In this document: positions 38,857 through 60,177 of the stretch, in pieces | Layout: each line of letters opens with the position of its first letter | Numbering within the stretch: position 1 is the first letter of the stretch | Origin: a bacterium | Lineage (GTDB): Bacteria; SAR324; XYD2-FULL-50-16 | NCBI GenBank assembly: GCA_032250835.1 | Contig: JAVVEA010000011.1 | Location: 18,211 to 82,210, forward strand | Length of the DNA: 64,000 nt | Reading direction: 5' to 3' | The notes under the pieces: model-generated | Seen by the model: only the letters and a program-made list of their open reading frames with translations | Databases searched by the model: none | Told to the model about the DNA's origin: nothing | Program-made: the position numbers and the translations under genes

Positions 38857-38858
38857 GG

Positions 38859-40930: not shown

Positions 40931-41932
40931 ATGTCTTGCCTGATCATCGCCGAAGCAGGGGTCAACCACAACGGGGACCTGCAACTAGCCAAGGACCTGA
41001 TCGACGCCGCCGCCGATGCGGGGGTGGACTTCGTTAAGTTCCAAACCTTTAAAGCCGAAAAACTGGTCACCGCCAGTGCCCAACAGGCAGACTACCAAAA
41101 GGCCAACACCGGCAAAGACGAAGGCCAACTGGCCATGATCAAAAGGCTGGAATTAGACCTAGAGGCTCATCATGTCTTGATGGAGCATGCAAAATCCAAA
41201 GGAGTGGCCTTTTTGTCTACCGCCTTTGACCTTGAAAGCATCGACTTATTAGACCAATTGGGCCTACCGCTCTTTAAGGTGCCTTCGGGCGAGATCACCA
41301 ACCTACCCTATTTGCGGCATATTGCCTCTAAAGGCAAACCGGTCATTATCTCGACCGGGATGGCCCTCTTAGGTGAGGTAGAAGCAGCCCTACAGGTCTT
41401 TTTAGATGCCGGAATGAGCCGCAATCAAGTGAGCATCTTACACTGCACCACCGAATACCCCACCCCGCCCGAAGAGGTGAACCTTTTGGCCATGAAAACC
41501 CTGGGCCGCGCGCTGCGCTGTCCGGTGGGCTATTCGGACCACAGCCAAGGAATTGAGGTGCCCATTGCGGCGGTGGCCTTAGGGGCTCAAATCATCGAAA
41601 AGCACTTCACCATGGACCGCAACCTGCCCGGTCCAGACCACAAAGCTAGCCTAGAACCCGCTGAGTTGACCGCCATGGTCCGCGGTATCCGCAAGATCGA
41701 GCTGGCCTTAGGCGACGGCATCAAACGGCTGACCCCTTCAGAAACCAAAAACCGGCCCATTGCCCGCAAGTCCTTGGTTGCCGCCTGTTTGATCCGCAAA
41801 GGAGAGGTCTTTAGCGACCACAACCTTACCGCTAAACGCCCCGGCACAGGTTTGAGCCCCATGGAGTGGGACCGGCTGATCGGACGGACCGCCAGCCGGG
41901 ATTACCAACCTGATGACCTGATCGAGCCATGA
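40931..41932 (+). CDS. legI: Nonulosonate synthase (N,N'-diacetyllegionaminate synthase, NeuB family)
   Basis: IIAEAGVNHNG, VKFQTF, KVPSGEITN, LHCTTEYP, GYSDH, IEKHFT, GPDH, C-terminal SAF domain. Confidence 0.9.
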   Translation: MSCLIIAEAGVNHNGDLQLAKDLIDAAADAGVDFVKFQTFKAEKLVTASAQQADYQKANTGKDEGQLAMIKRLELDLEAHHVLMEHAKSKGVAFLSTAFDLESIDLLDQLGLPLFKVPSGEITNLPYLRHIASKGKPVIISTGMALLGEVEAALQVFLDAGMSRNQVSILHCTTEYPTPPEEVNLLAMKTLGRALRCPVGYSDHSQGIEVPIAAVALGAQIIEKHFTMDRNLPGPDHKASLEPAELTAMVRGIRKIELALGDGIKRLTPSETKNRPIARKSLVAACLIRKGEVFSDHNLTAKRPGTGLSPMEWDRLIGRTASRDYQPDDLIEP

Positions 41933-43110
41933 AGTTGCGGATTTTGGTGGTGACCACTTCGCGGGCTGATTATGGCTTGCTTAAACCGTTGGTAGAAGCC
42001 TTGAGCGCCGAATCGGACTTTGAGGTCCTGCTGGCCGCTACGGGCAGCCACCTTTCGGAGCACCACGGCCATACCTTGGACTTCATCACATCCGATGGCT
42101 TCAATCTAGCCGCCCAAATTCTGATGAATCCGCCGAGCAACGATGCCGCGGGTACCGCCCAAGCCGTGGCCGCTGGCATCCAAGGATTCTCTCAAGCGAT
42201 CACTGGATTGAGCCCCCATTTGATGGTGGTGTTAGGTGACCGTTTTGAATTGCTCGCGGCCTGCGACGCTGCGTTGCTACACCGGTTGCCTATTGCCCAC
42301 CTGCACGGCGGCGAGCGCACCGAAGGAGCCCTGGACGAGGCGATCCGCCATATGGTCACCAAGATGGCGGCACTGCACTTTCCGGCAATGGCCGAATATG
42401 GACGGCGCATCGTCCAGATGGGCGAGCGGCCCGAGCGAGTCTTTGTGGTGGGGGCCTTAGGGATCGACAATGCCCTCAATGTTATGCCTTTAAGCCGCGC
42501 CGAGTTGAGCGAACAAGTGGGCGTAGATTTCAACCAACCTTTGGCACTGATGACTTTCCACCCCGTCACCTTAGACGGTGAGGCCGAGGCACTACGCCAG
42601 ATCGACGAAGTTTTGGGGGCGGTCCTTGCACAGGACCTTCCCACGCTGGTCACCATGCCCAACGCCGACCCGGCTTCAGACGTGATCTACCGCCGCTTGT
42701 TAGAAACCTCGCAGCAACACCCCGAAAAACTGCAACTACGCAAGAACCTGGGGCAGCGGGGTTATCTAAGCGCCATGCGGTACGCCACCTTGATGTTAGG
42801 TAACAGTTCCAGTGGCGTGATTGAAACGCCTAGTTTCGCCCTACCTACCGTCAATATTGGCGACCGGCAAAAGGGCCGCTTCCTTCCCCAGAACGTAATC
42901 CAAGTTCCTTGCGAGCGGGCAGCAATCTCAGGGGCTTTGGCCCAGGCCCGTTCTACGGAATTCAAAGAGAGCCTAAAGGGCCTGAGCAGTCCTTTTGGCA
43001 AGGGAGATGCAGCCCAACAGATAACCCAAGTTCTGCGTCAATTTAAGGACCGGCTTTTACGCCAACCGGCAGGACTGCTGAAAAAAAGCTTTTTTGACCT
43101 TCCGTCTTAA
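41929..43110 (+). CDS. legG: Hydrolysing NDP-diacetamido-sugar 2-epimerase (NeuC/LegG)
   Basis: TTSRADYG, LGDRFE, HLHGGE, DEAIRH, TFHP, GNSSSG, NIGDRQ. Confidence 0.9.
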   Translation: MKLRILVVTTSRADYGLLKPLVEALSAESDFEVLLAATGSHLSEHHGHTLDFITSDGFNLAAQILMNPPSNDAAGTAQAVAAGIQGFSQAITGLSPHLMVVLGDRFELLAACDAALLHRLPIAHLHGGERTEGALDEAIRHMVTKMAALHFPAMAEYGRRIVQMGERPERVFVVGALGIDNALNVMPLSRAELSEQVGVDFNQPLALMTFHPVTLDGEAEALRQIDEVLGAVLAQDLPTLVTMPNADPASDVIYRRLLETSQQHPEKLQLRKNLGQRGYLSAMRYATLMLGNSSSGVIETPSFALPTVNIGDRQKGRFLPQNVIQVPCERAAISGALAQARSTEFKESLKGLSSPFGKGDAAQQITQVLRQFKDRLLRQPAGLLKKSFFDLPS

Positions 43111-43136
43111 ACCGGACCAACCAGACCCTTGCCCCT

Positions 43137-44186
43137 ATGAAAAACTTCTTAGACGCTACCATCCCCGCCGACGCTAAGCTTTCCCATGCGATTTCGGTGA
43201 TCGACGCCACCAGAGCCCAGATTGCCTTGGTCGTAGACGAGCAAAACCACCTCTTAGGGACCATCACCGATGGGGATATTCGCCGCGCTTTCTTGCGGGG
43301 CGTTCAACTGGATTCGGGCATCCAAGAAGTGATGAATCCACAGCCCACCACCGCCAGGATTGAGTCGACCAAAGGTGAGTTGCTGGCCCTAATGAACGCC
43401 AAAAGCCTGCGGCACATCCCCTTGCTCAACGAGCAAGGGGTTTTGGTGGGTTTAGAGATCTTCAAGGAGCTGCTCACACCAGAAAAACGCGACAACTGGG
43501 TGGTCTTGATGGTCGGCGGATTGGGGACGAGGCTACGCCCCCTAACGGATGACACCCCCAAACCCCTGCTCAAGGTGGGCAATAAGCCGATCTTAGAGAC
43601 CATTGTCGAGCAATTCTTGGAATATGGCTTCCACCGCTTCTATTTCTGCGTCAACTACCAGAGCGAAAAGATTGTGCAACATTTTGGCGACGGTTCCCGC
43701 TGGGGCGCGGAGATCCGTTATGTGGAAGAACAAAACCGCATGGGCACCGCAGGGGCCTTGGGTCTTTTGCCCGAGCGCCCCCAAGAGCCGGTGGTGGTGA
43801 TGAATGGGGATCTCCTCACCAAAGCCAACTTCAGCCACCTGTTAGACTTCTTAGAAGACAACCAAGCCTTGGGTGTGATGTGCGTGCGTGAATATGACTT
43901 TCAGGTACCCTACGGCGTTGTGAACCTCAAGGACCACCAAATCACAAGCATCGACGAGAAGCCGACCCATCGTTTTTTTGTGAACGCTGGAATCTACGCC
44001 TTAAGCCCCGAGGCCTTGGAACTGATCCCCCCGGACCGCTTTTTTGACATGCCCGAGTTGTTTGGCCTAATGATCGCCCAGCAGAAACCGGCCTTAGCTT
44101 TCCCGATGCGCGAATATTGGATGGATATTGGTCAAATCGACGATTTCCACAAAGCCCGTAGTGAATTTGACCAAATATTCGGCTGA
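43137..44186 (+). CDS. ptmE: CBS-domain nucleotidyltransferase (PtmE-like GlcN-1-P guanylyltransferase)
   Basis: Tandem CBS domains (GTITDGDIRR), MVGGLGTRL.PLT...PKPLL, MNGDLLT, WMDIG. Confidence 0.82.
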   Translation: MKNFLDATIPADAKLSHAISVIDATRAQIALVVDEQNHLLGTITDGDIRRAFLRGVQLDSGIQEVMNPQPTTARIESTKGELLALMNAKSLRHIPLLNEQGVLVGLEIFKELLTPEKRDNWVVLMVGGLGTRLRPLTDDTPKPLLKVGNKPILETIVEQFLEYGFHRFYFCVNYQSEKIVQHFGDGSRWGAEIRYVEEQNRMGTAGALGLLPERPQEPVVVMNGDLLTKANFSHLLDFLEDNQALGVMCVREYDFQVPYGVVNLKDHQITSIDEKPTHRFFVNAGIYALSPEALELIPPDRFFDMPELFGLMIAQQKPALAFPMREYWMDIGQIDDFHKARSEFDQIFG

Positions 44187-44263: not shown

Positions 44264-44836
44264 ATGCCCATGGAAACGAAATTTTTTCAAGATTACCAAG
44301 CCCTACTGTCTAAAGTCATGAGTGAAGCCTCCTGGGAAGTTGTTGGCCATTTGGCGCAGCGGCTACGGGGCAACTGGCAGACGGGTAATCAGGTCTTCAT
44401 CTGCGGCAACGGCGGCTCTGCGGCCAACGCCATCCACTTGGCCAACGACCTAATCTACGGCATCAACAAAAAGACGGGCATCGGCCTGCGGGTCAACGCG
44501 CTTCCAGCGAACCAAGCGGTCAACCTTTGTCTAGCCAACGATGAAGGCTTTGAGAAAATCTTCAGCCAGCAATTGGCCGTATTGGGCAACGCCGGAGACA
44601 CGCTGATCGTTTTTTCGGGCTCCGGTAACAGCCCGAACATCGTCAAGGCGCTTGAGCAAGCCAAATCTATGGGAATCGAGACCTATGCGATTTTGGGTTT
44701 TTCTGGCGGCAAGTCGAAAGAAATGGCCGATCATGCGCTACATTTTCCGATCGACAACATGCAAATCGCCGAAGACCTCCAACAAATCGTCGGCCACATG
44801 GTGATGCGCTGGTTGGCTCAAAACCCTGTGAACTGA
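44264..44836 (+). CDS. gmhA: SIS-domain phosphosugar isomerase, GmhA-like
   Basis: ICGNGGSAANA.H, NDEGFE.IFSQQL, SGSGNSPNIV. Confidence 0.75.
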   Translation: MPMETKFFQDYQALLSKVMSEASWEVVGHLAQRLRGNWQTGNQVFICGNGGSAANAIHLANDLIYGINKKTGIGLRVNALPANQAVNLCLANDEGFEKIFSQQLAVLGNAGDTLIVFSGSGNSPNIVKALEQAKSMGIETYAILGFSGGKSKEMADHALHFPIDNMQIAEDLQQIVGHMVMRWLAQNPVN

Positions 44837-44840
44837 GCCT

Positions 44841-46316
44841 TTGCGCATGTGTGTAACCGATAAGATCAAAACCGTCGCCGAAATCGGCCAACTCCTAAGC
44901 GAACGCAGCGGGAAAAAGGTCGTCCTTTGCCACGGGGAATTTGACCTACTGCACTTCGGCCACACCCGCTACTTTAAAGCCGCCCGTAAGTTCGGTGACC
45001 TTTTGGTGGTGACCTTAACCCCCGACCGGTTCATCGCCAAAGGCCCCGGTCGCCCGGTTTTCAACGAAAACCAACGGGCCGAGGCCATCGCCAACTTGGC
45101 CTTTGTGGATTATGTAGCCATCAACGAATGGCCTACGGCTATCGAAACGCTACAGACGATCAAGCCGGACATCTACGTCAAAGGTAGCGAGTATTTAGGC
45201 AAGGTGGACGTGACGGGCCGGTTGCAGGCAGAAAAGGACCTGATTGAGTCCTTGGGCGGCAAAATGGAGTTCACCCACGAGATCATCTTTTCTTCCTCAA
45301 AACTGCTCAACAACAACTTCGACGTCTTCACCAAAGCGTCCAAGCCCTTCTTGTCTGAGTTGGCCGCAAAAACCAAGGACACAGAAATCTTGGCGGCCCT
45401 TGCTGATTTAGCTTCGAAGCGGGTCTTGGTACTTGGGGATTTGGGTTTAGAAGAGATCAATTTGATCCGCGACATAGAACGTGCGAAGCTGTCGGAGCGT
45501 TTTGTGCAGCCCCAAGGGGCCTTACTGGGATTAAACTTCCTGGCCCATTTTTGTGAGCGTCTGGACTTTCTTTCCGTTGGCTCCGTAGACCAGCAGTTGG
45601 TCCAACCCTTTATGCCCACCAGCGTCTTTGCGGACCTGATCGCTGACGAGCGCCTAAGCTACCCCAGCAGCCGCCGCTTCATTGACGCCGACACGGGCTT
45701 TCGCCGTTTGAGCCTGCTCGACCAGAAGCATGCGCCACTCAAGATTGAGCAGGAAGCCAAAGTTTTAGAGCGGCTAGAGCGCAACCTGTCTGATTATGAT
45801 CTGGTGATGGTCTTTGAGATGGGTCGAGGCTTTTTGAGCCAAAGCATTAAAGAACACTTGTCGGCCAAGGCTCCTTTTTTAGCCCTGCACCTCAACGTGG
45901 AAGACCCCGCCCATTTGCGTGAATGCCTCAACGGCTATGGAAAGCTCGACCTTATGGTCGCACCCCAAGACCAAATAGGCGAAGCTTTAGAGCAACAGCT
46001 CTTAAGCGAACCTCTCTGGCGCAACAATGCTGACCTTTTGATCACTGAGGCCAACGGGGCTTTGCACCGCCAATGTGCCACCGGCCTTTGCGAGCTGCCG
46101 CCTTTTGTGGCCCAACCCGCTTCTTTGCTCCCCATCGATTGGTCGAGCACGGTTTTTGCACTAATTGCCCCTTTGGTCCAAGCCCAAGCGCCCCAAGATT
46201 GGCAACTACTGATAGGCGGAGCCGCAGCGGCCATGACCCGCCAAGCGGCTAAGGCCCCCTTTAAGTTAGAGAAGATGTTATTTGAAAAATTCGTGATTGC
46301 CCTGCTCAACCGTTAA
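44841..46316 (+). CDS. Nucleotidyltransferase (HxGH) fused to a degenerate PfkB domain, HldE-like with reversed domain order
   Basis: HGEFDLLHFGH, KGPGRPVF, PDIYVKG. The C-terminal ribokinase-like part lacks the GGA and GAGD motifs. Confidence 0.78.
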   Translation: MRMCVTDKIKTVAEIGQLLSERSGKKVVLCHGEFDLLHFGHTRYFKAARKFGDLLVVTLTPDRFIAKGPGRPVFNENQRAEAIANLAFVDYVAINEWPTAIETLQTIKPDIYVKGSEYLGKVDVTGRLQAEKDLIESLGGKMEFTHEIIFSSSKLLNNNFDVFTKASKPFLSELAAKTKDTEILAALADLASKRVLVLGDLGLEEINLIRDIERAKLSERFVQPQGALLGLNFLAHFCERLDFLSVGSVDQQLVQPFMPTSVFADLIADERLSYPSSRRFIDADTGFRRLSLLDQKHAPLKIEQEAKVLERLERNLSDYDLVMVFEMGRGFLSQSIKEHLSAKAPFLALHLNVEDPAHLRECLNGYGKLDLMVAPQDQIGEALEQQLLSEPLWRNNADLLITEANGALHRQCATGLCELPPFVAQPASLLPIDWSSTVFALIAPLVQAQAPQDWQLLIGGAAAAMTRQAAKAPFKLEKMLFEKFVIALLNR

Positions 46317-46317
46317 G

Positions 46318-47877
46318 ATGCAAACAGCCCAAAAAAAGATACTCAACGCCGAGCAGGCGCGCGCCAAATTAGCTGAAATGGCCCTGCAACCGGGGAACAC
46401 GGGCTTGACCTTCGGTCACTTCAACGTAGTCCACCCAGGGCACTTGCGCTTTTTGCACCACGCCCGCGAAAACTGCGACCGCTTGGTGGTGGCGATCATG
46501 AGTCAAGAACAACTAGAAGAAGGCCAGAAGGGCCGCTTCTTCTCGGCTGGAGAACGGGCCTTAGGCGTGGCGGCTCTGCAAGCCGTTGACCAAGTGGTGG
46601 TGCTCGAAGGCATCACTCTAGTGGAGGTGATCGATGCGCTCAAACCAAATTCTTTTGTTTTGGGTAAAGAATTCGAGGAAGAACGCCGCGAAGAGACGGA
46701 GGCTTATTTAGAAGCCGTCGAGCGCAACGGCGGCAAGATCAGCTATTCTTCAGGTGATGTCTCTTATTCGAGCAGCGACATGCTGTTCCAACAACCCGAA
46801 GACATCCACCACGAAAAGATCCGGGAATTCAAAGAAGTTTGCCGCAGAGCCGGGATCGACCTAAGCCGCCTAGGCGAGCTGATCGACCGCTTCACCGACC
46901 AGCGTTTGTTGGTTTTAGGCGACACCATTGTGGATCAGTACATTGCCTGTGACGCTTTGGGCATGAGCCAGGAAGCGCCGGTGTTGGTGGTGCGTGAATT
47001 AGACGCCAAAGAATTTGTCGGTGGCGCGGGCATTGTGGCCTGCCATGTCCAAACCCTTGGGGCCAATTGCCATTACCTTTCGGTGATCGGCCAAGACGAA
47101 AAGGGCCGCTTGATCCAGCGTTTTATGGACGATTTTAAGGTCGGCTGCACCCTATTAGAAGACTCCAGCCGTCCGACGACCTTTAAGATCCGCTACATGG
47201 TCGAAAACCAGAAATTGTTGCGCGTTTCTAGGTTGTTGGAACACAGCATTTCTAAAAAGTTAGAAAAACAGGTCTTAGAAAAAATCGCATCCATGGCACC
47301 GGAGCTAGACGGAATTGTGGTTAGTGATTTTGTTTACGGGGTGATCACCGACAGCCTGCTCGAAGGGTTGGGTAAAATCGCCCAGGAACATGGAATTAAG
47401 CTCTTTGGTGACTTGCAATGCAGTTCCCAAGTAGGCAATGTGGCAAAATTCCAGAACTACCACTTGATCACGCCCACTGAACGCGAAGCGCGCATCGCTT
47501 TATCGGACCAAGAGAGCGGCTTAGAAAAGCTCGCGCGGCGTATGTTGGCGGCGACCCACAGCAGCAACCTTTTGATTACTTTGGGGGCGGCGGGCTTCAT
47601 TGCCTATCAGGGGCTCAGCGGTGAGCCGGGCAAATACGCCAGCCAGCATTTCCCCGCCTTAAACCAAACGGCCCTTGATGTAGCTGGTGCAGGGGACACC
47701 TTGCTCGCTACCATGGCGATCAGCCAATGCGCCGGGGCCAATTTACTTGAATCAGCGGCCCTTGGAGCCTGCACTGCGGCGATCGCCGTAGGCAGGGTGG
47801 GCAATATTCCGATCACGGCGGTAGAGCTGAAGGCCTACTTAGGCAATCTGCTCAAGCAGATGCAAGCCGAACCTTAA
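46318..47877 (+). CDS. Nucleotidyltransferase-PfkB kinase fusion, HldE-like with reversed domain order
   Basis: FNVVHPGH; VLGDTIVDQY, SQEAPV, GGAGIVA, ITPTEREAR, DVAGAGD (intact). Likely ATG at 46318. Confidence 0.83.
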   Translation: MQTAQKKILNAEQARAKLAEMALQPGNTGLTFGHFNVVHPGHLRFLHHARENCDRLVVAIMSQEQLEEGQKGRFFSAGERALGVAALQAVDQVVVLEGITLVEVIDALKPNSFVLGKEFEEERREETEAYLEAVERNGGKISYSSGDVSYSSSDMLFQQPEDIHHEKIREFKEVCRRAGIDLSRLGELIDRFTDQRLLVLGDTIVDQYIACDALGMSQEAPVLVVRELDAKEFVGGAGIVACHVQTLGANCHYLSVIGQDEKGRLIQRFMDDFKVGCTLLEDSSRPTTFKIRYMVENQKLLRVSRLLEHSISKKLEKQVLEKIASMAPELDGIVVSDFVYGVITDSLLEGLGKIAQEHGIKLFGDLQCSSQVGNVAKFQNYHLITPTEREARIALSDQESGLEKLARRMLAATHSSNLLITLGAAGFIAYQGLSGEPGKYASQHFPALNQTALDVAGAGDTLLATMAISQCAGANLLESAALGACTAAIAVGRVGNIPITAVELKAYLGNLLKQMQAEP

Positions 47878-47898: not shown

Positions 47899-48981
47899 AT
47901 GTCCGATAAATACCGCATTGACTCGCACAAGTTGATTTTCCATGTCCCCCGGGTGAATGCCTGGCTAGAGGGCGAGAACGTTTACCCGATCTATATGGAA
48001 GTCTCCCCTGCGGGTGGTTGCAACCACCGCTGTACCTATTGCGCACTGGACTTTATGGGCTACCAGAAGCGCTTTTTGGACACCGGCATCTTAAAGACCC
48101 GCCTGACCGAGATGGGCCAACTGGGGCTCAAGTCAATCATGTTCGCTGGCGAAGGCGAGCCTTTCTTACACCCGGATATGGTGGAGTTGACTGAGCACAC
48201 TAAGGCCGCCGGTATTGACCCCTCCTTTACCACCAACGCCTCTAAGATCGTCAAGGAAGTGGCGGACCGGATCGTGCCGGTAACCAGTTGGATCAAGGTG
48301 AGCATCAACGGGGCGACTGCCGAGACTTACGCCAAGATCCACCAGAGCACGCCTAAAGACTTCGACCGCACCATCGAAAATATGGCTTACGCCGCCGAGT
48401 TGCGCAAAAAAGATGGCCACAAATGTGTCTTAGGGATGCAGTTGTTGCTGCTGCCGGAGAACCAGCACGAAGCAGTGGCACTGGCCAAGTTGGCCAAAGA
48501 AATTGGGATGGATTATCTGGTGATTAAGCCCTACAGCCAGCACCCGCTCTCCAACACGCACCTCTACGAAAACGTTACCTACGAAGGAATTGACCAACTG
48601 GCCGAAGACTTAGACGCCGTCAGCGGCGATGGCTTCAGCGTGATCTTTAGGCGCGAAACCATGAAGACCTGGGACGCCAAGGCACACGAATACGAGCGTT
48701 GCTTGGCGCTGCCCTTCTGGTCTTATATGGACGCAGGCGGAAACATTTGGGGCTGCTCTATGTATATGGAAAACGAAGAGCTGAAAGATAAGTTCCTCTA
48801 CGGCAACATCAACGAAAAAAGTTTCAAGGAAATCTGGGAAGGCGACCAGCGTAAGCAAGCCTTGTCTTGGGTGGAAAATGACTTGAACGTCAGCCAATGC
48901 CGCGTTAACTGCCGCATGGACAAGATCAACAAGTATCTCTGGGAACTGCGCCACCCCCAAGAGCACGTCAACTTCATCTAA
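47899..48981 (+). CDS. Radical SAM enzyme with a Twitch/SPASM-type auxiliary cluster motif (paralog 1)
   Basis: CNHRCTYC, GEGEP, C-x17-C...GNI...CRVNC. Confidence 0.9.
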   Translation: MSDKYRIDSHKLIFHVPRVNAWLEGENVYPIYMEVSPAGGCNHRCTYCALDFMGYQKRFLDTGILKTRLTEMGQLGLKSIMFAGEGEPFLHPDMVELTEHTKAAGIDPSFTTNASKIVKEVADRIVPVTSWIKVSINGATAETYAKIHQSTPKDFDRTIENMAYAAELRKKDGHKCVLGMQLLLLPENQHEAVALAKLAKEIGMDYLVIKPYSQHPLSNTHLYENVTYEGIDQLAEDLDAVSGDGFSVIFRRETMKTWDAKAHEYERCLALPFWSYMDAGGNIWGCSMYMENEELKDKFLYGNINEKSFKEIWEGDQRKQALSWVENDLNVSQCRVNCRMDKINKYLWELRHPQEHVNFI

Positions 48982-48983: not shown

Positions 48984-50123
48984 ATGATGGTCCCGCCCCG
49001 TTTAGACCGCAATCGGCTCAAGATCAAACCCTTGAGCGAGCGCCAAAGTAAGGCCGACGCCTCGGTGCTCCGGCACCCCGGCGACTTGGCCCCGGTGATC
49101 GAAGCGGCCCAACAACAACGGCTGGCTGGTTTGGCTGGGCGCATTATCCAAGCCCGCCAAAAGGGGGCTCCGGTGCTGTTGACCTACGGGGCGCATCTCT
49201 TCCGCAACGGCATGAGCCCGCTGATCATCGACCTGATGGAGCGGGGCTTTATCCAGCAGTTGACCACCAACGGTGCCGGCGGCATCCACGATTGGGAACT
49301 AGCCTTTCATGGCCGCACTACCGAGGATGTACAGCAATATTTATCTCAAGGGCAATTTGGTATCTGGGAAGAAACGGGCCGCTACCAAAACCTAGCCTTG
49401 CTGCTAGGAGCCGCTCAGGGTTTAGGTTACGGAGCCAGCTTAGGCAAGATGATGGCCGAAGAGCGGTTGGAGTTGCCGGACCCGAAGCAGCTTAAAAAGC
49501 AACTGGCCCAAGCGCTTAGCCAAGATGAGGACTTACCGCCGCAGCTGGCCGCCCAGGCGGCATTGTTGCAGGTAATGAGCGAGCAGAACCTAACCGCCGG
49601 GGTGATCGACCTGCCCCATCCGGGCCGGGAATCGAGCCTGCTGTATCAGGCCTACCGTCTGGGTATCCCCTTGAGTATTTGTCCAGGGATTGGCTACGAC
49701 ATCATCTACAGCCACCCCTACAACAACGGAGCAGCCTTAGGTCAAGCCGCCTTAGACGACTTCTTGGCCTTTGCCCACTCGGTGAGACAGATGCAAGGCG
49801 GGGTCTATCTTTCGGTGGGTTCAGCCGTTATGAGCCCGATGATCTTAGAAAAGGCGCTCTCTATGGCCCGTAACTTGGCCTTGCAAGACCAAACGCCTTT
49901 AGAGAACTACCAGATTTGTGTGGTCGATATGCAACCGGGCACCTGGGACTGGGCCACCAAAGGGGACCCGCCTAAAGACAACCCGGCCTATTATTTACGT
50001 TTCTGCAAGTCCTTTAGCCGCATGGGCGGGGATTTTGCCTATTACGAAATGGACAACCGCGCCTTCTTCCACAACCTCTACCAAGAGATTATGGTGGCCG
50101 ATGCGGCCCAGGCGCTTGACTAA
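48984..50123 (+). CDS. Uncharacterised deoxyhypusine-synthase-like (DHS-fold) protein
   Basis: YGAHLFRNG, TTNGAGGIHDWE, GIGYDI, SVGSAVMSPMILEKALSMARN, recognised by eye as a DHS-like Rossmann family. Confidence 0.5.
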   Translation: MMVPPRLDRNRLKIKPLSERQSKADASVLRHPGDLAPVIEAAQQQRLAGLAGRIIQARQKGAPVLLTYGAHLFRNGMSPLIIDLMERGFIQQLTTNGAGGIHDWELAFHGRTTEDVQQYLSQGQFGIWEETGRYQNLALLLGAAQGLGYGASLGKMMAEERLELPDPKQLKKQLAQALSQDEDLPPQLAAQAALLQVMSEQNLTAGVIDLPHPGRESSLLYQAYRLGIPLSICPGIGYDIIYSHPYNNGAALGQAALDDFLAFAHSVRQMQGGVYLSVGSAVMSPMILEKALSMARNLALQDQTPLENYQICVVDMQPGTWDWATKGDPPKDNPAYYLRFCKSFSRMGGDFAYYEMDNRAFFHNLYQEIMVADAAQALD

Positions 50124-50175: not shown

Positions 50176-51039
50176 ATGAACGAACCGAACAAAGGCCTCA
50201 CCCTAGAGGAGATGAAGGCCAAAGCCGACTTTATCCGCAAGGATCTAGTCGAGGTCTGCGTGCGCAACCAAGCAGGCCACATCGCGCCTTCGCTCTCGGC
50301 GGTGGACTATTTGACGGTCCTTTACTACCGGGTTTTGCGCCACAATGGGGACCCCTTATGGTCCGAGCGCGACCGGGTGGTATTCTCCAAGGCCCACGGG
50401 GCCTATGGCCTTTATGCGATCTTAAGCGATCTGGGCTATGTCTCCCGCGAAGAATGGGAAAAATTTTACACCTTTAAAGACGGCAAAAAACTGAGCCGTT
50501 TAGCGGGCTGTTGCGAGATGGACCTTGAGATTGGCTTAGAAGCGGGCTGCGGCTCCTTGGGTCACGGCCTGCCGATGGCGGTCGGGATGGCCTTCGGCTA
50601 CAAAGCCCAAAAGAAGACCGGCCGTATCTATGCAGTGGTCGGCGACGGCGAGATGCAAGAGGGCAGCAACTGGGAAGCCTTGCAATTTGCTGCAAAAATG
50701 GGCCTAGACAACCTAACAGTGATCATCGACAACAACGGCTTACAGGCCATGGACCACCTCTCCAACGTTTTGACCGTAGGCGACGTGACCGAAGACCTGC
50801 ACCGTAAGTTCGAGGCCTTCGGCTGCTTGACCGAGCGTTGTGATGGCCACGACATCGCCGCTTTAACTGAGCAACTAGAACGCTACGCCAAAGGGGGCAT
50901 TGGCCGCCCACAGGTGATGCTGGCTAAGTGCATCAAAGGATATGGTTTAAAGGCCATCGAGAACGTCGCTAAGTTTCACTTCCGCATCCCCACGCCGGAA
51001 GAAATCGCATTCGGTACGCGCTATGATCAAGGGCAATAA
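50176..51039 (+). CDS. Transketolase-like ThDP enzyme, N-terminal (PP) subunit
   Basis: GHIAPSLS, RDRVVFSKAH, GSLGHGLP, GDGEMQEGSNWEA...DNN (ThDP motif). Confidence 0.9.
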   Translation: MNEPNKGLTLEEMKAKADFIRKDLVEVCVRNQAGHIAPSLSAVDYLTVLYYRVLRHNGDPLWSERDRVVFSKAHGAYGLYAILSDLGYVSREEWEKFYTFKDGKKLSRLAGCCEMDLEIGLEAGCGSLGHGLPMAVGMAFGYKAQKKTGRIYAVVGDGEMQEGSNWEALQFAAKMGLDNLTVIIDNNGLQAMDHLSNVLTVGDVTEDLHRKFEAFGCLTERCDGHDIAALTEQLERYAKGGIGRPQVMLAKCIKGYGLKAIENVAKFHFRIPTPEEIAFGTRYDQGQ

Positions 51040-51526
51040 ATTCCGCAAAGACATCGGCCCGCCGCTTTTAGAAGCGGCGCGCCAAGACGAGAAGATTGTC
51101 CTGTTGGTTTGCGACATGGGCTTTGGGGTGGTTGAAGACTTTGCCACCCAATTCCCAGACCGCTGTTTCAACATGGGCATGGCCGAGCAAGGCGCGGTAA
51201 GCATCGCCGCGGGGATGGCCATGACGGGCATGAAGCCGATCGTCTATTCGATCGTCAACTTCTTGGCTTACCGTTCCATCGAGCAAATCCGCAACGATGT
51301 GGTGCTACAGCATCAGAACGTCAAGTTCATCGCTACGGGCGTGAACGACTACTTTGACACCTTGGGCCACAGCCACACCTGCGGCGAGCAGGACAAAGAA
51401 ATCATGAAAATGATCGGCATGCCCGTCTACGATCCTTACGAAAAGGACGAATACCAACTAAAGGACTTCCTAGACATGACCCAGCGCTGGATCACTTCCA
51501 AGGAACCCGGCTATCTACGACTCTAA
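51023..51526 (+). CDS. Transketolase-like pyrimidine-binding subunit (no C-terminal third domain)
   Basis: DMGFG, FNMGMAEQ, SIEQIRND, GHSH; ends at PGYLRL, the normal end of the Pyr domain. Confidence 0.85.
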   Translation: MIKGNKFRKDIGPPLLEAARQDEKIVLLVCDMGFGVVEDFATQFPDRCFNMGMAEQGAVSIAAGMAMTGMKPIVYSIVNFLAYRSIEQIRNDVVLQHQNVKFIATGVNDYFDTLGHSHTCGEQDKEIMKMIGMPVYDPYEKDEYQLKDFLDMTQRWITSKEPGYLRL

Positions 51527-51535: not shown

Positions 51536-52627
51536 ATGAGTGAAGGGATTAAGTTAAATTACGAAGAAATGGTCGCCGCCTATTGGGATAGCCTCAATAC
51601 GGTACTGCGCGGCTTCAATGCCCAAGGCGAATTTTTGGACCTATGGGTTCCAGATGAAGACGGCGTCAGTAGTATCCTCAACCTGCTTGAAGCGGTTCAA
51701 GAGAAGGGACACGACCAATTGGAGTTGGTGGTTTCTCAAGAAACCGTAGACTCCATGGACCTAGCCCTCTTGCAAGAAGAACTGGTTAGTTTGGGTGATG
51801 TGAGCATCACCGAACAAGCGGGGGGGATTGTTTTACAGGTCAGCGGCTTGGCTGAAGGCGCAGCCTTCCATAACGTACACCCCGTCTATGTCAGCGCGCT
51901 GCGTGCTGCGGCCAAAGGTACCAGCTATCAAGGCAACGTCGAACGCGTCGATGCCCAGGCCCAGGCCGAAGGTTTGACCCTAACGGTCAGCGTAGACCAG
52001 GGCAAACACCTGTTAATCACTCAGGCCCGCTGGCAAGGTGAGGCAGGCCCCTTGGAAGCGGCTATGTTAAATGCCACCTGCCAAGTTCTAGAGGGCATCA
52101 CCCTGGCCGATGCCAGTGACCACGGAGTTTTGCGGGTTGAAGACTTTCTCCGAGACGAAAAGTTGCGCCGCCCCACCAGCGGGATTGTGATCCCAGAGCG
52201 GGTGGAACCGGCCTTCAAGTTGCCCCTCGAATTGATGCGCGGCCTCTTGGCGGACTACCAAAAGAAAGACCCCAAAGCGGGGCAGGTCAACTTCTTTGTC
52301 CCCGCCTTCAGCCAACACTGGGAGGGACTCAGCGACCAGGAACGGATCGGTGAGGTGGCCCGCGCCGCCGAGGGTTTTTTACGGGAGCTGAAATTGGCAC
52401 CCGACAGCCTGAGCATCGAGCGGATCGACTCGGCCGGACGGGTGACCGTGGCCCTCAAAGAAGAATTAGACGTCCACTTTAAGGGTGAGTTGCTCTTAAA
52501 GTTAGAGCGTTTCCTAGACAAAGGCATGGAGCCCAACCTGCACCTTTACATGCAGGAACTAGAAGATCGCAACTCCAAACGGCGACAGATCTTGCACAAA
52601 GACGACCTGGAGAAGGAGACCACATGA
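51536..52627 (+). CDS. Hypothetical protein with degenerate IscU/NifU-like domains
   Basis: ITQARWQG..VLEGITLADA..LMRGLLADY follows the IscU pattern. There is only one Cys in 363 aa. Confidence 0.55.
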   Translation: MSEGIKLNYEEMVAAYWDSLNTVLRGFNAQGEFLDLWVPDEDGVSSILNLLEAVQEKGHDQLELVVSQETVDSMDLALLQEELVSLGDVSITEQAGGIVLQVSGLAEGAAFHNVHPVYVSALRAAAKGTSYQGNVERVDAQAQAEGLTLTVSVDQGKHLLITQARWQGEAGPLEAAMLNATCQVLEGITLADASDHGVLRVEDFLRDEKLRRPTSGIVIPERVEPAFKLPLELMRGLLADYQKKDPKAGQVNFFVPAFSQHWEGLSDQERIGEVARAAEGFLRELKLAPDSLSIERIDSAGRVTVALKEELDVHFKGELLLKLERFLDKGMEPNLHLYMQELEDRNSKRRQILHKDDLEKETT

Positions 52628-53745
52628 ACAAGAAAACTGAGAACAGCGGCCTAGTTTTAGACGGCACCAAGCTAGAATGGCATTTGGACCGCGTCCGCGC
52701 CTGGGAGCGCGGCGAACGGGTAGCGCCGATCACCATCGACATGTCCCTGACCCGGGCCTGTAACTTCGCTTGCGGCTTCTGTTACGCCATGTTGCAGGAA
52801 AACGACCGCCAGCGGATCGACTCAAAGGTGATCCGGGAGTTTTTAGAAGACTGCGCCGAGATCGGCGTTAAGGGCATCAGCCTAGTTTCTGACGGCGAGA
52901 GCACCATCAGCCCGGTCTTTATGGAGACCGTCAAGTACGGTAACGAGCTGGGCTTGAGCATGGCCGTGGGTACTAACGGCTACGTCTTCACCCGCCGCAA
53001 GCTGGAAGAACTTCTGCCCCACCTGACTTATCTGCGGGTTAACATCTCCGCTGGTGAGCGGGACCGCTACGCCGAGATCATGGGTGTTAAGCCCGAATGG
53101 TTCGACCGGGTGGCCCAGAACATCAAAGACATGGCCGAAATCAAGAAGCAGCGGGACCTAGACGTGACCATCGGGTTGCAGATGGTGCTGATGCCCGAGT
53201 ATGAAGACCAAATCATCCCCTTGGCCCAATTAGGTAAGGACCTGCGCCCCGATTATCTAGTGATCAAGCACTGCTCGGACAACGAAGAAGGCGATTTGGG
53301 CGTGAACTACGGTGGCTACAAGGCCATGTACGACAAGCTGCATCAGGCTGAGGCCATGAGCGACGAAGAGTACAAGGTAGTGGTCAAATGGAGTAAAATC
53401 CAAGACGAAGGCAAGCGGAGCTACCAGCGCTGCTACGGCCCTCCGTTCATGATCCAAATGTCTGGCTCAGGTTTAGTGGCTCCTTGCGGGATGCTCTTTA
53501 ACGAGAAGTACAAGAAGTTCCATATCGGCAACATCTGTGAAACCCGCTTCAAGGACATCTTCAACAGCGACCGCTATTGGGAGGTGATGAACCATTTGGC
53601 GAGCCCGCACTTCAACGCCCAGAAGATGTGCGGCACCCTGTGCCTGCAACATAAAGTGAACGAGGTCTTAGACGAGGCCCGCAAGGGCCACCGCGAACTG
53701 CGCGAGCCCGACGGTTTCCCGCCCCAGCACCTCAACTTCATTTAA
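52624..53745 (+). CDS. Radical SAM enzyme with a Twitch/SPASM-type auxiliary cluster motif (paralog 2)
   Basis: CNFACGFC, SDGEST, C-x17-C...GNI...CGTLC. Confidence 0.9.
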   Translation: MNKKTENSGLVLDGTKLEWHLDRVRAWERGERVAPITIDMSLTRACNFACGFCYAMLQENDRQRIDSKVIREFLEDCAEIGVKGISLVSDGESTISPVFMETVKYGNELGLSMAVGTNGYVFTRRKLEELLPHLTYLRVNISAGERDRYAEIMGVKPEWFDRVAQNIKDMAEIKKQRDLDVTIGLQMVLMPEYEDQIIPLAQLGKDLRPDYLVIKHCSDNEEGDLGVNYGGYKAMYDKLHQAEAMSDEEYKVVVKWSKIQDEGKRSYQRCYGPPFMIQMSGSGLVAPCGMLFNEKYKKFHIGNICETRFKDIFNSDRYWEVMNHLASPHFNAQKMCGTLCLQHKVNEVLDEARKGHRELREPDGFPPQHLNFI

Positions 53746-53750: not shown

Positions 53751-53776
53751 AAGGCCCGTGCAAGCGGGCCTTTTTG
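53751..53776 (+). terminator. Rho-independent terminator closing the ~17-kb operon
   Basis: AAGGCCCG-tgcaag-CGGGCCTT followed by TTTG. Confidence 0.8.
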
Positions 53777-53786
53777 TTTGCGCAAT

Positions 53787-54287
53787 ATGACTCTTCCCAG
53801 CAGCCCCCAGGGGCATGTCCAGCCGGGCCAACGTGAAGCTGCGTTGGCGATTATCCGCAACCCGCAGGGTCAATTCCTTTGGCAGCTGCGCGATGAAGGA
53901 ATTGCGGAGTATCCCGGCCTCTGGGGCCTCTTTGGCGGCGGCGTCGAGCCCGGCGAAGCGCCCAACAAAGCGATCATGCGCGAGTTAAAAGAAGAATTGG
54001 GGCTAGAGCCAACGATCCTTTGGGACCTAGGCGACTTCACCCATCCCCGCTGGTACCTGCATCTTTTTTTAGTGGAAATGCCCATTGATTTTGGGCAATT
54101 GGAGCTAAAAGAAGGCCAGGACTGGGGACTCTTTAGCGACGAAGACTTCAACCAAGGGCAGCTTTACTCGCACAGGTTGGGAGCACCCCGAGGGATTTGC
54201 CCCCCGTTAGCCGAACTTTACGAGGTTTTGCGCGAAAACCAATTCCTGCGCTTGCCACCCACACCGGTCCAACTCAGCCGGACTTGA
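53787..54287 (+). CDS. Nudix hydrolase
   Basis: Nudix box GGGVEPGEAPNKAIMRELKEELG. Confidence 0.88.
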   Translation: MTLPSSPQGHVQPGQREAALAIIRNPQGQFLWQLRDEGIAEYPGLWGLFGGGVEPGEAPNKAIMRELKEELGLEPTILWDLGDFTHPRWYLHLFLVEMPIDFGQLELKEGQDWGLFSDEDFNQGQLYSHRLGAPRGICPPLAELYEVLRENQFLRLPPTPVQLSRT

Positions 54288-56704: not shown

Positions 56705-57979
56705 TTGATGGCCCCCATGTACCTGATCCGACGACTTCGCTCCTTCTTTTCCAAGCCCTTCGCGCGGCAGGTAAAGATCCTGTTTTGGGTAGCCAAGACC
56801 TTGAGTCTATGGCTATTGCAAAGGAGTTTGGGCAGCCTTTTGGGTATAGGGCTCTTGGGCTTTTTGGTTTTGCTCACCCCCTTCAAGCGGGTGCGCCTTT
56901 CTTCGGTTCATGTCACCCGGATCGGGCATTTGGCGCTCAACCTAGACCTATTCGCCCGCCGCCAACAGCAACACCCCAGCATCCCGCAAGGCGCTTGGCA
57001 CCTGATGATTGCCGACGATGCCCGACCAGCGAACCGCGAATTGCTTCGCCTTTGGCAGCGACACCTGAACCTGAGCGAAAACCCACTGGCCCGGTGGGTG
57101 ATGTTGCTTTGTGAATGGCTCTTAAAAAAGACCCCCTATTACATCCCCCTCCCCATGAACTCGGTGGAATACCATGAGTTCAACGAACTGGAACCCATTC
57201 TTGGGTTCAGTGCCGAAGAGGAAGCAAGAGGCCAAGAAAAGCTTCGGCAAATGGGAATCGGCCCTGAAGACTGGTTTGTCTGCGTCTTTGCTCGGGATTC
57301 GGGTTATTTAGAGCGCCTATTACCCAGCGCCGATTGGAGCTGCCATATCTGCCGGAATTCTAAGATCGAAAGCTTCCGGCCTTTGATCCAATGGTTGATC
57401 GATCAGGGAGCTTATGTGGTGCGGATGGGCACCGAGGTGACCCAACCCTTTGCCTTCGACAACCCCCATTACATTGATTACTCGGCCCAGCACCGAGACG
57501 AGTTCATGGACCTCTACCTTTGCGCTAAGGCCCGAGCCTTTGTGGGTGGGGCCTCGGGTATGGCAGACGTGACCAATCTGTTTAATACCCCGCGATTGCA
57601 ACTGGATTGCGTCCCCTTTGGGTTCGTCCCCTTCGGAAAACAGCAAATGTCTCTACCCAAGCGGGTGGTAAGGATCGGGACCACCGAAGCGGTGCCCTAT
57701 AGCGAACTGATTGCCAAAGGCTTGGACCTACAAGCCAACGGAACCTTGTTCAATCAAGCAGGCTACGACTACATCGACAACAGCCCGGCCGAAATGTTAG
57801 CGGCGACCCAGGAGTTGATGCGGATGGTTACTCTTCCCCAGCCCTTTAATGCTGAGGAGTTGCAGTTGATAGAAGCCGTGCGGCTGCTCTTCCCTCCAGG
57901 GCACCCCACCCGCGAAAACCTAAACCCCGTCTCTCCTAGTTTCATCAAAGCCAACCGACACCTGTTCGGGCTGGACTAG
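56705..57979 (+). CDS. Putative glycosyltransferase, TIGR04372-like
   Basis: TRIGHLALN, RDSGY, RNSKI, VVRMG, DLYLCAKARAFVGGASG, DNSPAEM. Confidence 0.7.
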   Translation: MMAPMYLIRRLRSFFSKPFARQVKILFWVAKTLSLWLLQRSLGSLLGIGLLGFLVLLTPFKRVRLSSVHVTRIGHLALNLDLFARRQQQHPSIPQGAWHLMIADDARPANRELLRLWQRHLNLSENPLARWVMLLCEWLLKKTPYYIPLPMNSVEYHEFNELEPILGFSAEEEARGQEKLRQMGIGPEDWFVCVFARDSGYLERLLPSADWSCHICRNSKIESFRPLIQWLIDQGAYVVRMGTEVTQPFAFDNPHYIDYSAQHRDEFMDLYLCAKARAFVGGASGMADVTNLFNTPRLQLDCVPFGFVPFGKQQMSLPKRVVRIGTTEAVPYSELIAKGLDLQANGTLFNQAGYDYIDNSPAEMLAATQELMRMVTLPQPFNAEELQLIEAVRLLFPPGHPTRENLNPVSPSFIKANRHLFGLD

Positions 57980-58037
57980 ACACAGCAGGACCGAGCGGGA
58001 TACAAAGAAGTTCTTTAACTGCGCTACCTTAAGGATC

Positions 58038-58424
58038 ATGGAACTAACCGGCAGCTGCCATTGCCATCGGGTCCGCTACCGCGCCCGGCCCAACGCATTG
58101 AAGCTGATCGAATGCAACTGTTCAATCTGCACCAAGCGCGGAGCCCTGCACTTGCGGCTTGCCCCTGAGCAAGTGGACTTCGAAGGAACCGAACACTTGA
58201 GTCTCTACCAATTTGGCACCCTGACAGCCGGGCATTTTTTCTGTTCAAACTGCGGGATTCCGGTCTATTCCAATCCCCGAGTCGCCCCCAGCCAGATAAG
58301 CCTGAACGCCCGCACCTTAGACGATTTCCACCAGATTGAGTGGGAACGAGTCGCCTTTGACGGACAACATTGGGAGGCTGCGGCCGCCCAACTAAAAAGC
58401 CCCCCAACTCCTAAGGAGCCTTGA
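58038..58424 (+). CDS. GFA/CENP-V family zinc-binding protein
   Basis: GSCHC, CNCSIC, FCSNCG. Confidence 0.88.
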   Translation: MELTGSCHCHRVRYRARPNALKLIECNCSICTKRGALHLRLAPEQVDFEGTEHLSLYQFGTLTAGHFFCSNCGIPVYSNPRVAPSQISLNARTLDDFHQIEWERVAFDGQHWEAAAAQLKSPPTPKEP

Positions 58425-60175
58425 TGTTCGAGGCCTACCGCAAGCTGCGCAGTCTTTTGGGACCTAAAGAAAGACGCGGGTTTTACATCATTTTGGTTGG
58501 TGTGTTGATCAACGCGGTCTTAGAGACCGTCGGGGTTGGCGTGATTCTACCCTTCATCTCGATTGTGGACGAACCCGCCAAGCTGGCCGACTATCCCTTT
58601 ATTGTCGGGGTTTTAGACTTCTTAGGGGCCCATACGGATCGCAACCGCATCTTAACCATCGGCGGGGCTATCTTGGGCCTAATGATCTTTAAAAACGGGT
58701 TCTTTTACCTCTTCACCCGTTTTCAGTTAAGTTACATCTACAACAATTCGGTGGTCTATTCGATCAAGCTCTTAGACAGCTATCTGGAGGCGGACTACCT
58801 CTTCCATTTACAGACCAACTCGGCGGTGTTGATGCGCAACCTAAAGCAGGAAGTACCGCTGCTCTTTTCAAGGGTGCTCTTGCCCCTAAGCGCTATGATC
58901 ACCGAGTTGACCATCGCCTTCTTTATCTCGCTGCTACTGATTTACACCGCCCCCGTCGCCACCATCACCGGAGCTGTGCTGATTGGGGGGATTGCGGTGG
59001 TCTTTTACCGGGCGATCCGCAAAAAGGCCCGTATCTACGGTCAGGCCCGCTTGGAACACGAAGCGGAAACCTACAAATGGCTCAACCAAAGCCTCAACGG
59101 GATCAAAGAGGCCAAGCTCTTTGGGGCCCGTAAGTTCTTGGTCAACCAAACCGAATCCCATTACCAGCAACTGGCCAAGATCATTGTTTATGAATACCTC
59201 ACCGGGCAGATGCCGCGAATCTTTTTAGAAGTCTTGATGGCTGGTGGGTTGATTTTGGTGGTGATCCTCTTGACCCTACAAGGTATGCCCTCAGGCGAAA
59301 TCTTGCCGACCTTAGCGCTCTTTGGCGCAGCGGCATTCCGTCTGATGCCGGCGGCGAACCGTTCTATGGGTAACCTCTTGACCCTTAAACTCGCCGGGCC
59401 TTCGCTGGACAACGTCTACAATAGCTTCGAAGAACTTAAATCCGTCCAGATCGATCAAGCAACCTTGGAGGCCGAGCATCGCCCGCTGGCTTATGAACAA
59501 CAAATTGAGATCGACCAAGTCAGCTTCTATTTCCCCGGTGCCGAGGCCCCAGCACTGGATCAGCTAAGCTTTAAGATCCCTAAAAATCAGTCGGTGGGGA
59601 TCATGGGGCCTTCGGGCTCCGGTAAGTCCACCTTTTTGAACCTCCTGTTGGGCCTCTTGCTGCCTAGCCAAGGATGCATCCGCGCCGATGGCGTGGATGT
59701 GGGGCAGAACTTGAAGGCTTGGCGGCAGATGATCGGTTTTGTGCCCCAGGAAATTTATCTTACCGACGACGTGATTGCCCGGAACGTGGCTTACGGTTTG
59801 CCGGACGAAGAAATTGACCGGGACCGGGTTTGGGAGGCTTTAGAGATGGCCCAGCTAAAGGAATTGGTCACCTCAATGCCCGAAGGGCTCGACAGTTACG
59901 TAGGCGAACGGGGCGTGCGGCTCTCGGGCGGGCAACGCCAGCGCATCGGCATCGCTCGTGCGCTCTACCACAACCCTGAAATCTTAGTCTTCGACGAGGC
60001 AACCAGCGCCTTAGACACCGAAACCGAAAAAGAGATCACCAAGAGCATCGAGGCCTTGGCCCACAAAAAGACCATCATCATCGTCGCCCACCGGCTCTCG
60101 ACCATCGAGAATTGCGATGTGGTATACCGTCTGGATCACGGGCGTTTAAAGACCCATGACCTTAAAGGAAACTGA
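58424..60175 (+). CDS. ABC exporter, fused permease/ATPase (MsbA/PglK-like glycolipid flippase candidate)
   Basis: Six-TM N-terminus; GPSGSGKST, VPQ, LSGGQRQRIGIARALY, FDEATSALD; lies in a glycan locus. Confidence 0.85.
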   Translation: MFEAYRKLRSLLGPKERRGFYIILVGVLINAVLETVGVGVILPFISIVDEPAKLADYPFIVGVLDFLGAHTDRNRILTIGGAILGLMIFKNGFFYLFTRFQLSYIYNNSVVYSIKLLDSYLEADYLFHLQTNSAVLMRNLKQEVPLLFSRVLLPLSAMITELTIAFFISLLLIYTAPVATITGAVLIGGIAVVFYRAIRKKARIYGQARLEHEAETYKWLNQSLNGIKEAKLFGARKFLVNQTESHYQQLAKIIVYEYLTGQMPRIFLEVLMAGGLILVVILLTLQGMPSGEILPTLALFGAAAFRLMPAANRSMGNLLTLKLAGPSLDNVYNSFEELKSVQIDQATLEAEHRPLAYEQQIEIDQVSFYFPGAEAPALDQLSFKIPKNQSVGIMGPSGSGKSTFLNLLLGLLLPSQGCIRADGVDVGQNLKAWRQMIGFVPQEIYLTDDVIARNVAYGLPDEEIDRDRVWEALEMAQLKELVTSMPEGLDSYVGERGVRLSGGQRQRIGIARALYHNPEILVFDEATSALDTETEKEITKSIEALAHKKTIIIVAHRLSTIENCDVVYRLDHGRLKTHDLKGN

Positions 60176-60177
60176 CG

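Follow-up and report, generated by a model that had tools for sequence, protein, structure and literature searches.

What does a transketolase relative do when the histidine that ordinarily contacts the donor has become a cysteine and the third domain is missing? This question is raised by two adjoining genes, here called TKa and TKb, in a 64,000-nucleotide stretch of contig JAVVEA010000011.1 from a bacterium of the SAR324 lineage (assembly GCA_032250835.1); this whole stretch is referred to below as the window. In our reading, the two chains are not the pentose-phosphate transketolase of the cell. The explanation that we favour, and to which we give about even weight, is that together they make up a minimal but catalytically competent member of the transketolase superfamily which depends on thiamine diphosphate (ThDP), consists of a diphosphate-binding (PP) and a pyrimidine-binding (Pyr) domain and acts as a C2-transferring carboligase within a sugar cassette containing radical S-adenosylmethionine (SAM) enzymes. 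Coordinates of the features discussed are collected in Table 1.

A two-chain enzyme with a cysteine at the donor site

The reading frames of TKa and TKb overlap by 17 nt and lie on the same (+) strand. At the position of the GHPE loop of transketolases, the TKa peptide reads L-A-G-C-C-E, with TGT encoding Cys112, TGC encoding Cys113 and GAG the following glutamate. Using HMMER, this loop ('laGCCem') pairs with 'lqGHPdm' of the solved split transketolase 6YAK (E 8.9e-45), and MAFFT pairs it with 'PGHPEY' of the full-length transketolase encoded elsewhere in the same genome. On the basis of these two alignments, Cys112 is the equivalent of His100 in the E. coli enzyme. The coordinates and alignments are thus in agreement with a preliminary description of this DNA, which had proposed a minimal two-chain transketolase-like enzyme with a His-to-Cys change at codon 50509. 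Ahead of the Gly-Cys pair there is also a six-residue insertion, approximately 'TFKDGKKLSR' (50455-50496, TKa residues ~94-107), that is found only in the closest homologues (P0003 and P0004).

It had further been proposed that the second chain stops cleanly after the Pyr domain, the third domain being absent rather than frameshifted, and both statements hold. TKb terminates at a TAA codon (51524-51526), with 9 bp between this stop and the ATG of the next gene at 51536. A Pfam scan detected no Transketolase_C domain (PF02780) in TKb, the next gene or the neighbouring genes, and when the entire 3.66-Mb assembly was searched in all six frames, only the canonical transketolase (contig C42) and DXS (contig C33) contained this domain, with none on the contig of the window. 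The AlphaFold model of TKb, with a mean predicted local distance difference test score (pLDDT) of 94.5, is a complete alpha/beta domain whose final strand spans residues 163-166. Foldseek places this model on the Pyr half of 6YAJ with template modelling (TM) scores of 0.81 for the query and 0.46 for the 303-residue target across 163 columns, and superposes it equally well on the Pyr domains of DXS, while by sequence TKb aligns to residues 35-168 of 6YAJ. TKb corresponds to the Pyr domain only, and no fused or extended version of this chain was retrieved when one was sought at E <= 1e-20. For TKa, the model has a pLDDT of 89 and its best fold match is the alpha chain of 6YAK (TM 0.84), which is also its best solved match by sequence.

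Residues that serve the cofactor are retained. The PP domain has its ThDP/metal motif, with G156, D157, G158, D185 and N187 invariant in the TKa alignment; in TKa, His35, His74 and His268, which correspond to E. coli His26, His66 and His261, are invariant or nearly so, and Glu55 and His118 of TKb are invariant in the TKb alignment. As the cofactor motif, Glu55 and these four histidines are conserved and the confident models match 6YAK and 6YAJ best, we consider the pair to be catalytically competent. Judged from the residues present, TKa and TKb look able to activate ThDP and to perform carbonyl chemistry, and by analogy with the solved split transketolase they probably assemble as an alpha2beta2 heterotetramer.

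Residues on the substrate side have fared differently. Arg8, the equivalent of Arg358, is kept here and is Lys in Campylobacterales. The equivalent of His461 is Gly ('ATGV' vs 'ATHAG') and that of Asp469 is Leu ('FDTLGHSH' vs 'VGEDGASH'). The C-terminus of TKb ('...GYLRL') falls about two residues short of the position of Arg520 (E. coli numbering), which we identify with the arginine in 'TRQN', the motif that closes the Pyr domain. Both the donor pocket and the sugar-phosphate pocket are remodelled.

A cysteine clade and its cassette

A total of 5,310 homologues of TKa were present in the database, and the occurrence of Gly-Cys was counted in the best 120 of these (55-84% identity). We also retrieved loci from genomes (80) and from predicted viral contigs (62), numbered with the prefix L, and constructed a FastTree tree of 144 TKa sequences with Shimodaira–Hasegawa-like (SH-like) support only; throughout, the 'viral' contigs are predictions. 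Gly-Cys was present in 120/120 of the best homologues and was kept in >=95% of 39 clade members, down to ~40% identity. The cysteine is therefore a family trait and not the product of local damage or chance. In the tree, the Cys forms made up a single clade of 39 rows (38 with Cys and one with Thr) with an SH-like support of 95, and the window sequence fell inside this clade. The residue following Cys112 varies among homologues (I, V, L, A, C, M or S), Cys113 is confined to the TKa of the window and its nearest relatives, and Cys125 ('GCGSLGHG') is frequent but is replaced by Thr in Campylobacterales members. A metal or iron–sulphur (Fe-S) cluster bound by the two or three cysteines of TKa was considered and rejected because Cys112 alone is conserved.

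The partner chain is 147-197 aa in every member of the Cys clade for which a partner was found. Canonical split transketolases, at 35-42% identity to TKa, have the GHP motif and partners of ~305-330 aa. The preliminary description had hinged on whether syntenic homologues share the cysteine or instead retain His and the third domain; they share the cysteine, as the counts above demonstrate, and their short partners lack domain III. Gly-Cys persists even in ultra-short viral forms of TKa despite deletion of the loop that follows it. These ultra-minimal Cys-type pairs (L095-L106) combine a TKa of 207-289 aa, in which the stretch between Gly-Cys and GSLGHG is deleted, with a TKb of 147-174 aa, and have a single radical-SAM gene nearby.

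Other residues occupy the His100 site in the sister clades. Short-partner types either keep His (L126-L135) or have Leu (L115, L123 and L128), and Ile is found in a long-partner type (L007 and L011). Among transketolase relatives, the absence of domain III extends beyond the Cys types, and the spread of His, Leu, Ile and Cys among sister clades indicates that the residue at the His100 site is a variable, clade-specific character of transketolase relatives in glycan loci. What is new here is the His100-to-Cys change as the signature of one clade, set apart from the His, Leu and Ile sister types, together with its resemblance to engineered donor and acceptor variants. We found no paper characterizing this Cys-type mini-transketolase clade in the literature, and NCBIfam contains no model for it.

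Several further variants were observed among these relatives. Natural Leu or Ile at the His100 site (L115, L123, L128, L111 and L073, and L007 and L011 among other glycan-locus relatives) mirrors an engineered pyruvate-using H100L variant. On predicted viral contigs L139-L153, PP and Pyr are joined in one open reading frame (ORF) as single-chain fused mini-transketolases of ~320-460 aa with the motif LPGHP; a gene for a NeuB/LegI-like synthase lies a few kb away, and these represent a different minimal architecture in nonulosonate contexts. In Fretibacterium (L047) and Sulfuricella (L067), a gene resembling the first radical-SAM gene of the cassette (rSAM1) lies directly 5' of a His-type split transketolase with a full-length partner of 305-307 aa, and these loci may be intermediates between the ordinary and the mini types.

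The Cys clade is tied to radical-SAM genes. In a descriptive count, such a gene lay on the same strand within 4 kb in 21/23 Cys-type loci as compared with 3/84 long His-type loci, while heptose genes were present in 8/23 Cys-type loci. Neither this linkage, the strongest clue from context, nor the change at the acceptor-side phosphate site had been noticed in the preliminary description. Every one of the clade's eight genome loci contained rSAM1. With the Cys-type mini-transketolase clade defined by Gly-Cys at the His100 site, a Pyr-only partner shorter than 200 aa and a neighbouring radical-SAM gene, TKa and TKb belong to it on each count, TKb being 167 aa long and the pair being flanked by rSAM1 and rSAM2. 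The core order rSAM1-TKa-TKb-rSAM2 was detected in a family-level relative (L006 and L012, in which these proteins are identical to those of a 'Candidatus Lambdaproteobacteria' metagenome-assembled genome, MAG), in a Nanoarchaeia MAG (L013), in Omnitrophota (L014 and L015), in MAGs of Campylobacteraceae, Aliarcobacter and Poseidonibacter (L016, L017 and L021) and on several predicted viral contigs (L092-L097). Nitrospirota, Levybacteria, Brocadia, Desulfobacula, Elusimicrobiota and Wallbacteria also appear among the names given to TKa homologues in the database. The nearest solved structures of both rSAM1 and rSAM2 include DesII and BlsE, which act on sugar nucleotides. rSAM2 is 86% identical to its counterpart in L012, 70% identical to that of a Campylobacteraceae MAG and 55-60% identical to those on predicted viral contigs.

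Only one of 40 related genomes contained a close copy of TKa, a pattern that fits a mobile accessory cassette. This rarity, the presence of a canonical transketolase on contig C42 and a best NCBIfam score for TKa (NF004559) of 184.7 bits, which does not reach the 488-bit cut-off of the transketolase equivalog, argue against a housekeeping role for TKa and TKb. The genome also encodes DXS, as mentioned above.

Table 1. Positions within the window of TKa, TKb, their key residues and neighbouring features
Feature	Positions	Strand	Basis or remark
TKa, PP chain of mini-transketolase, 287 aa	50176-51039	+	PF00456, E 2.3e-31
TKb, Pyr chain only, 167 aa	51023-51526	+	Sole family PF02779, E 1.3e-14
Cys112 codon (TGT) of TKa, at E. 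coli His100 donor site	50509-50511	+	Alignments
ThDP/Mg motif of TKa, G156-D-G ... D185-N-N187	50641-50736	+	Translation and alignment
Glu55 of TKb (MAEQG), cofactor-activating, equivalent to E. coli Glu411	51185-51187	+	Aligned to 'IAEQN' of 6YAJ
His118 of TKb (GHSHT), equivalent to E. coli His473	51374-51376	+	'GASHQ' of 6YAJ, 'GPTHQ' of the genome's own transketolase
Legionaminic acid genes: LegB, LegC, two NeuD-type acetyltransferases, PtmA-like, LegI, LegG, PtmE-like	36666-44186	Same as TKa	
GmhA-like isomerase and two nucleotidyltransferase-PfkB (reversed HldE-like) genes, heptose activation	44264-47877	+	TIGR00441, TIGR02198, TIGR02199, all below equivalog cut-offs
rSAM1, radical SAM/SPASM, conserved 5' cassette partner	47899-48981	+	PF04055, PF13186
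GSU2086-family protein (deoxyhypusine-synthase-like, weak match)	48984-50123	+	NF052581, 322 bits, above cut-off
Unnamed 363-aa protein between TKb and rSAM2	51536-52627	+	Homologues in same position in L006, L012, L016
rSAM2, radical SAM/SPASM, very highly conserved 3' partner	52624-53745	+	PF04055, PF13186
Terminator-like hairpin 3' of rSAM2	53751-53772	+	9-bp stem, 6 GC pairs, T-rich tail; consensus match only
Nudix hydrolase past the hairpin	53778-54287	+	PF00293, E 7e-18; homologue in same position in L012

The genes around the cassette point towards surface glycans. GmhA-like and nucleotidyltransferase-PfkB genes accompany the cassette in L012, L016, L017 and L021. In L016, GmhB and GmhA precede the cassette, and after it come a B12-radical-SAM enzyme, a GT2 glycosyltransferase, an HldE-like protein and an HddC-like transferase; the cassette of L017 is flanked on one side by legionaminic acid genes and on the other by a Maf/PseD-like flagellin-modification protein. 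Where the window has the GSU2086-family protein, between rSAM1 and TKa, L016 (8994-9983) and L017 (8998-9993) have an epimerase/dehydratase of the short-chain dehydrogenase/reductase (SDR) type, and a similar SDR lies just 3' of TKb in L021 (11261-12250). This exchange suggests that the GSU2086-family protein and the SDR, which are unrelated, perform the same redox step. In Geobacter sulfurreducens, GSU2086 itself is located between hldE and gmhA (PMC5585712). The 363-aa protein has no match in Pfam or NCBIfam.

On the 3' side of the cassette, a TIGR04372-family glycosyltransferase, a PglK/MsbA-like ABC exporter and an unnamed 399-aa protein are encoded at 56705-61377, and the glycosyltransferase and exporter suggest a lipid-linked oligosaccharide or surface glycan. 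The legionaminic acid set of the window contains no CMP-synthetase of NeuA/LegF type within the operon; a related Aliarcobacter locus encodes a PseF-like cytidylyltransferase (L017:5157-5900). Elsewhere in the window (20036-26428), two large ORFs of 1042 and 464 aa, neither with an NCBIfam match, come after a gene for the selenocysteine elongation factor SelB.

Which reaction the pair may catalyse

The nature of the donor is suggested by mutagenesis of other transketolases. H66, H100, G114 and H473 have been described as donor-binding residues, H100 is consistently Phe in DXPS, and H100F, and still more H100L, increase the activity of Geobacillus stearothermophilus transketolase with pyruvate (PMC7661550). 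In variants of the same enzyme, H102L/L118I/H474S leads to use of pyruvate as donor, H102L favours alkyl donors and S385D/H462I/R521H favours non-phosphorylated aldose acceptors (PMC11997939). Both papers agree with the earlier statement that this His contacts the donor and differs in pyruvate-using ThDP enzymes. Since published changes at His100 shift the donor from hydroxypyruvate to pyruvate, a non-canonical C2 donor is the most likely for TKa and TKb.

From these data and the gene context we infer a direction of reaction, a donor, an acceptor and a product. The GmhA-like and HldE-like enzymes would provide a nucleotide-activated heptose, on which a radical-SAM enzyme of DesII/BlsE type would generate a keto or aldehyde group, aided in some genomes by an NAD-type partner (the GSU2086 protein or the SDR). 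From a donor without the usual C1-hydroxyl contact, for which pyruvate is the first candidate, the mini-transketolase would then generate a ThDP-bound C2 carbanion and add this C2 unit to the carbonyl of a heptose derivative that is nucleotide-linked and not phosphorylated at position 7. Completion of the sugar would fall to the second radical-SAM enzyme with its partner, and the sugar would be incorporated, together with legionaminic acid, into a lipid-linked surface glycan. Sugar branching of the YerE type, which had been invoked as a precedent, is real chemistry (PMC12247030).

Several points weigh against this scheme. Cys112 differs from the Leu and Phe of the mutagenesis work and could be a proton or hydrogen-atom donor or a nucleophile. 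The His473 equivalent, which is changed in the engineered pyruvate-using variants, is kept in TKb. Neither the GSU2086 protein nor an SDR is present in L013-L015, which makes it doubtful where the acceptor carbonyl would come from. Finally, the radical-SAM counts include related and non-independent sequences.

Alternatively, the enzyme may break rather than make a carbon–carbon bond, either by removing a C2 unit through retro-acyloin cleavage of an oxidized sugar side chain or by decarboxylating a 2-oxoacid, with Cys112 protonating the ThDP-bound carbanion before release of an aldehyde. Minimal two-chain ThDP decarboxylases consisting of PP and Pyr do exist, for example the sulfopyruvate decarboxylase ComDE, and the alignment places a thiol where a histidine would contact the donor intermediate, so that it could donate a proton. 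However, the equivalents of His26 and His261, residues that handle the acceptor or C3 oxygen in transketolase, are invariant, and this fits transfer; moreover, Pfam and NCBIfam scans of the cassette revealed no evident downstream enzyme for the released aldehyde. We give cleavage or decarboxylation a small but appreciable chance of being the true reaction.

A bolder form of C2 transfer is chain extension, in which a radical-SAM enzyme would make an aldehyde or ketone on the side chain of a nucleotide-heptose and the mini-transketolase would add C2 to yield a nine-carbon or C2-branched sugar without an aldolase of NeuB type. We think the chances of this are slim. A more extreme version would have Cys112 participate in a radical reaction coupled to the radical-SAM enzymes on either side.

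The context of the genes also allows for a simpler role in precursor supply, whereby an ordinary, compact transketolase would boost sedoheptulose-7-phosphate for the adjoining heptose pathway. GmhA-like and HldE-like genes are indeed present in the same operon, and split transketolases with the canonical motif 'LQGHPDK' are found directly beside GmhA on viral contigs (L110 and L116-L125). Such a role is nevertheless improbable for TKa and TKb. His100 has become Cys, His461 Gly and Asp469 Leu, and TKb ends before Arg520; the genome already has a canonical transketolase; and the Cys clade is linked to radical-SAM genes (21/23 loci) rather than to GmhA as such. In the viral loci themselves (L110, L116-L125, L130 and L132, all predicted), the 'LQGHPDK' split transketolase lies directly 3' of a GmhA-like gene and has a partner of ~307-381 aa, which may represent phage-encoded supply of sedoheptulose-7-phosphate for heptose synthesis.

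Very doubtful is the generation of an acyl unit in the manner of QncN/NapB, by which a C2 unit from a ketose or 2-oxoacid would pass from ThDP to a thiol, possibly Cys112, and be placed as an N- or O-acyl group on legionaminic acid or heptose. The active-site thiol is conserved, and legionaminic acid, which is made by the operon, is variably acylated on its amino groups; two NeuD-type acyltransferases are encoded upstream. Against this, the cassette has no lipoyl, acyl carrier protein or E2-like partner and no obvious oxidant, and there are no legionaminic acid genes within the 10-kb flanks of L014 and L016. Lastly, the tight linkage of TKa and TKb with radical-SAM genes could reflect a non-catalytic scaffold or pseudo-enzyme that stabilizes the neighbouring radical-SAM enzymes, a proposal rendered scarcely credible by strong conservation of the ThDP-binding and cofactor-activating residues and of four catalytic histidines across ~40-84% identity.

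We return to C2 transfer by a Cys-type mini-transketolase, which probably builds an unknown sugar rather than serving central metabolism. His100 of transketolase has so far been altered for donor specificity only in the laboratory, and the Cys clade provides a natural, fixed Cys at this site. Members of the clade come from many bacterial phyla, from an archaeon of DPANN type and from predicted phage contigs, and occur in surface-glycan loci with radical-SAM genes almost always adjacent. Working out its reaction would reveal both the unknown sugar and the chemistry by which it is built. This sugar would be a new surface epitope in Campylobacterales relatives (Aliarcobacter and Poseidonibacter). 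The enzyme would provide a small natural framework for carboligating substrates without a phosphate group and would demonstrate that a natural relative of transketolase can do without the third domain.

Comparison with known systems

YerE and the E1 alpha/beta (alphaKADH2) enzymes, which use ThDP to add an acyl-anion equivalent derived from pyruvate to a nucleotide-linked keto sugar (PMC12247030), serve here as a working analogy. They belong to ThDP superfamilies other than that of TKa and TKb. YerE is a single-chain enzyme of the decarboxylase type with the order Pyr-TH3-PP, whereas TKa and TKb are two chains with PP preceding Pyr. The E1 component family E1_dh (PF00676) scored 20.5 bits on TKa, below its cut-off of 22 and over residues 126-188 only, and the Transketolase_C domain typical of E1 beta chains is absent, so that TKa and TKb do not classify as E1 alpha/beta proteins; TPP_enzyme_C matched only the region of the generic ThDP motif.

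Within the transketolase family, the analogy is with the split-gene transketolases of miharamycin and amipurimycin biosynthesis, which reside in sugar-tailoring clusters, all from Streptomyces, and for which addition of a hydroxyacetyl (C2) unit to a keto sugar has been proposed but is unproven (PMC12247030). In two Streptomyces loci among our set (L085 and L088, not confirmed as the published clusters), His is kept and the TKb-matching ORFs are unsplit, 351-679 aa in length and extend past Pyr. The engineered transketolase variants of G. stearothermophilus (PMC11997939) are altered at positions that match the His100, His461 and Arg520 sites of TKa and TKb. These are three-domain laboratory variants with Leu, while the natural clade has Cys and keeps His473.

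DXS resembles TKa and TKb in belonging to the transketolase superfamily, in its use of pyruvate as donor and in having a residue other than His, namely Phe, at the His100 site (PMC7661550), and TKb scores equally against DXS Pyr domains and transketolase. DXS differs in being a single chain with domain III, in the hydrophobic character of its residue at the His100 site and in its acceptor, glyceraldehyde-3-phosphate. The best match of all, by both sequence and fold, is the split transketolase of Carboxydothermus hydrogenoformans (6YAK/6YAJ; PMC7661550). Although TKa and TKb are only 32-36% identical to this enzyme, have Cys, Gly and Leu at the His100, His461 and Asp469 sites and lack its third domain, they share with it the order of a PP chain followed by a Pyr chain, the ThDP motif, the cofactor Glu and the equivalents of His26, His66, His261 and His473.

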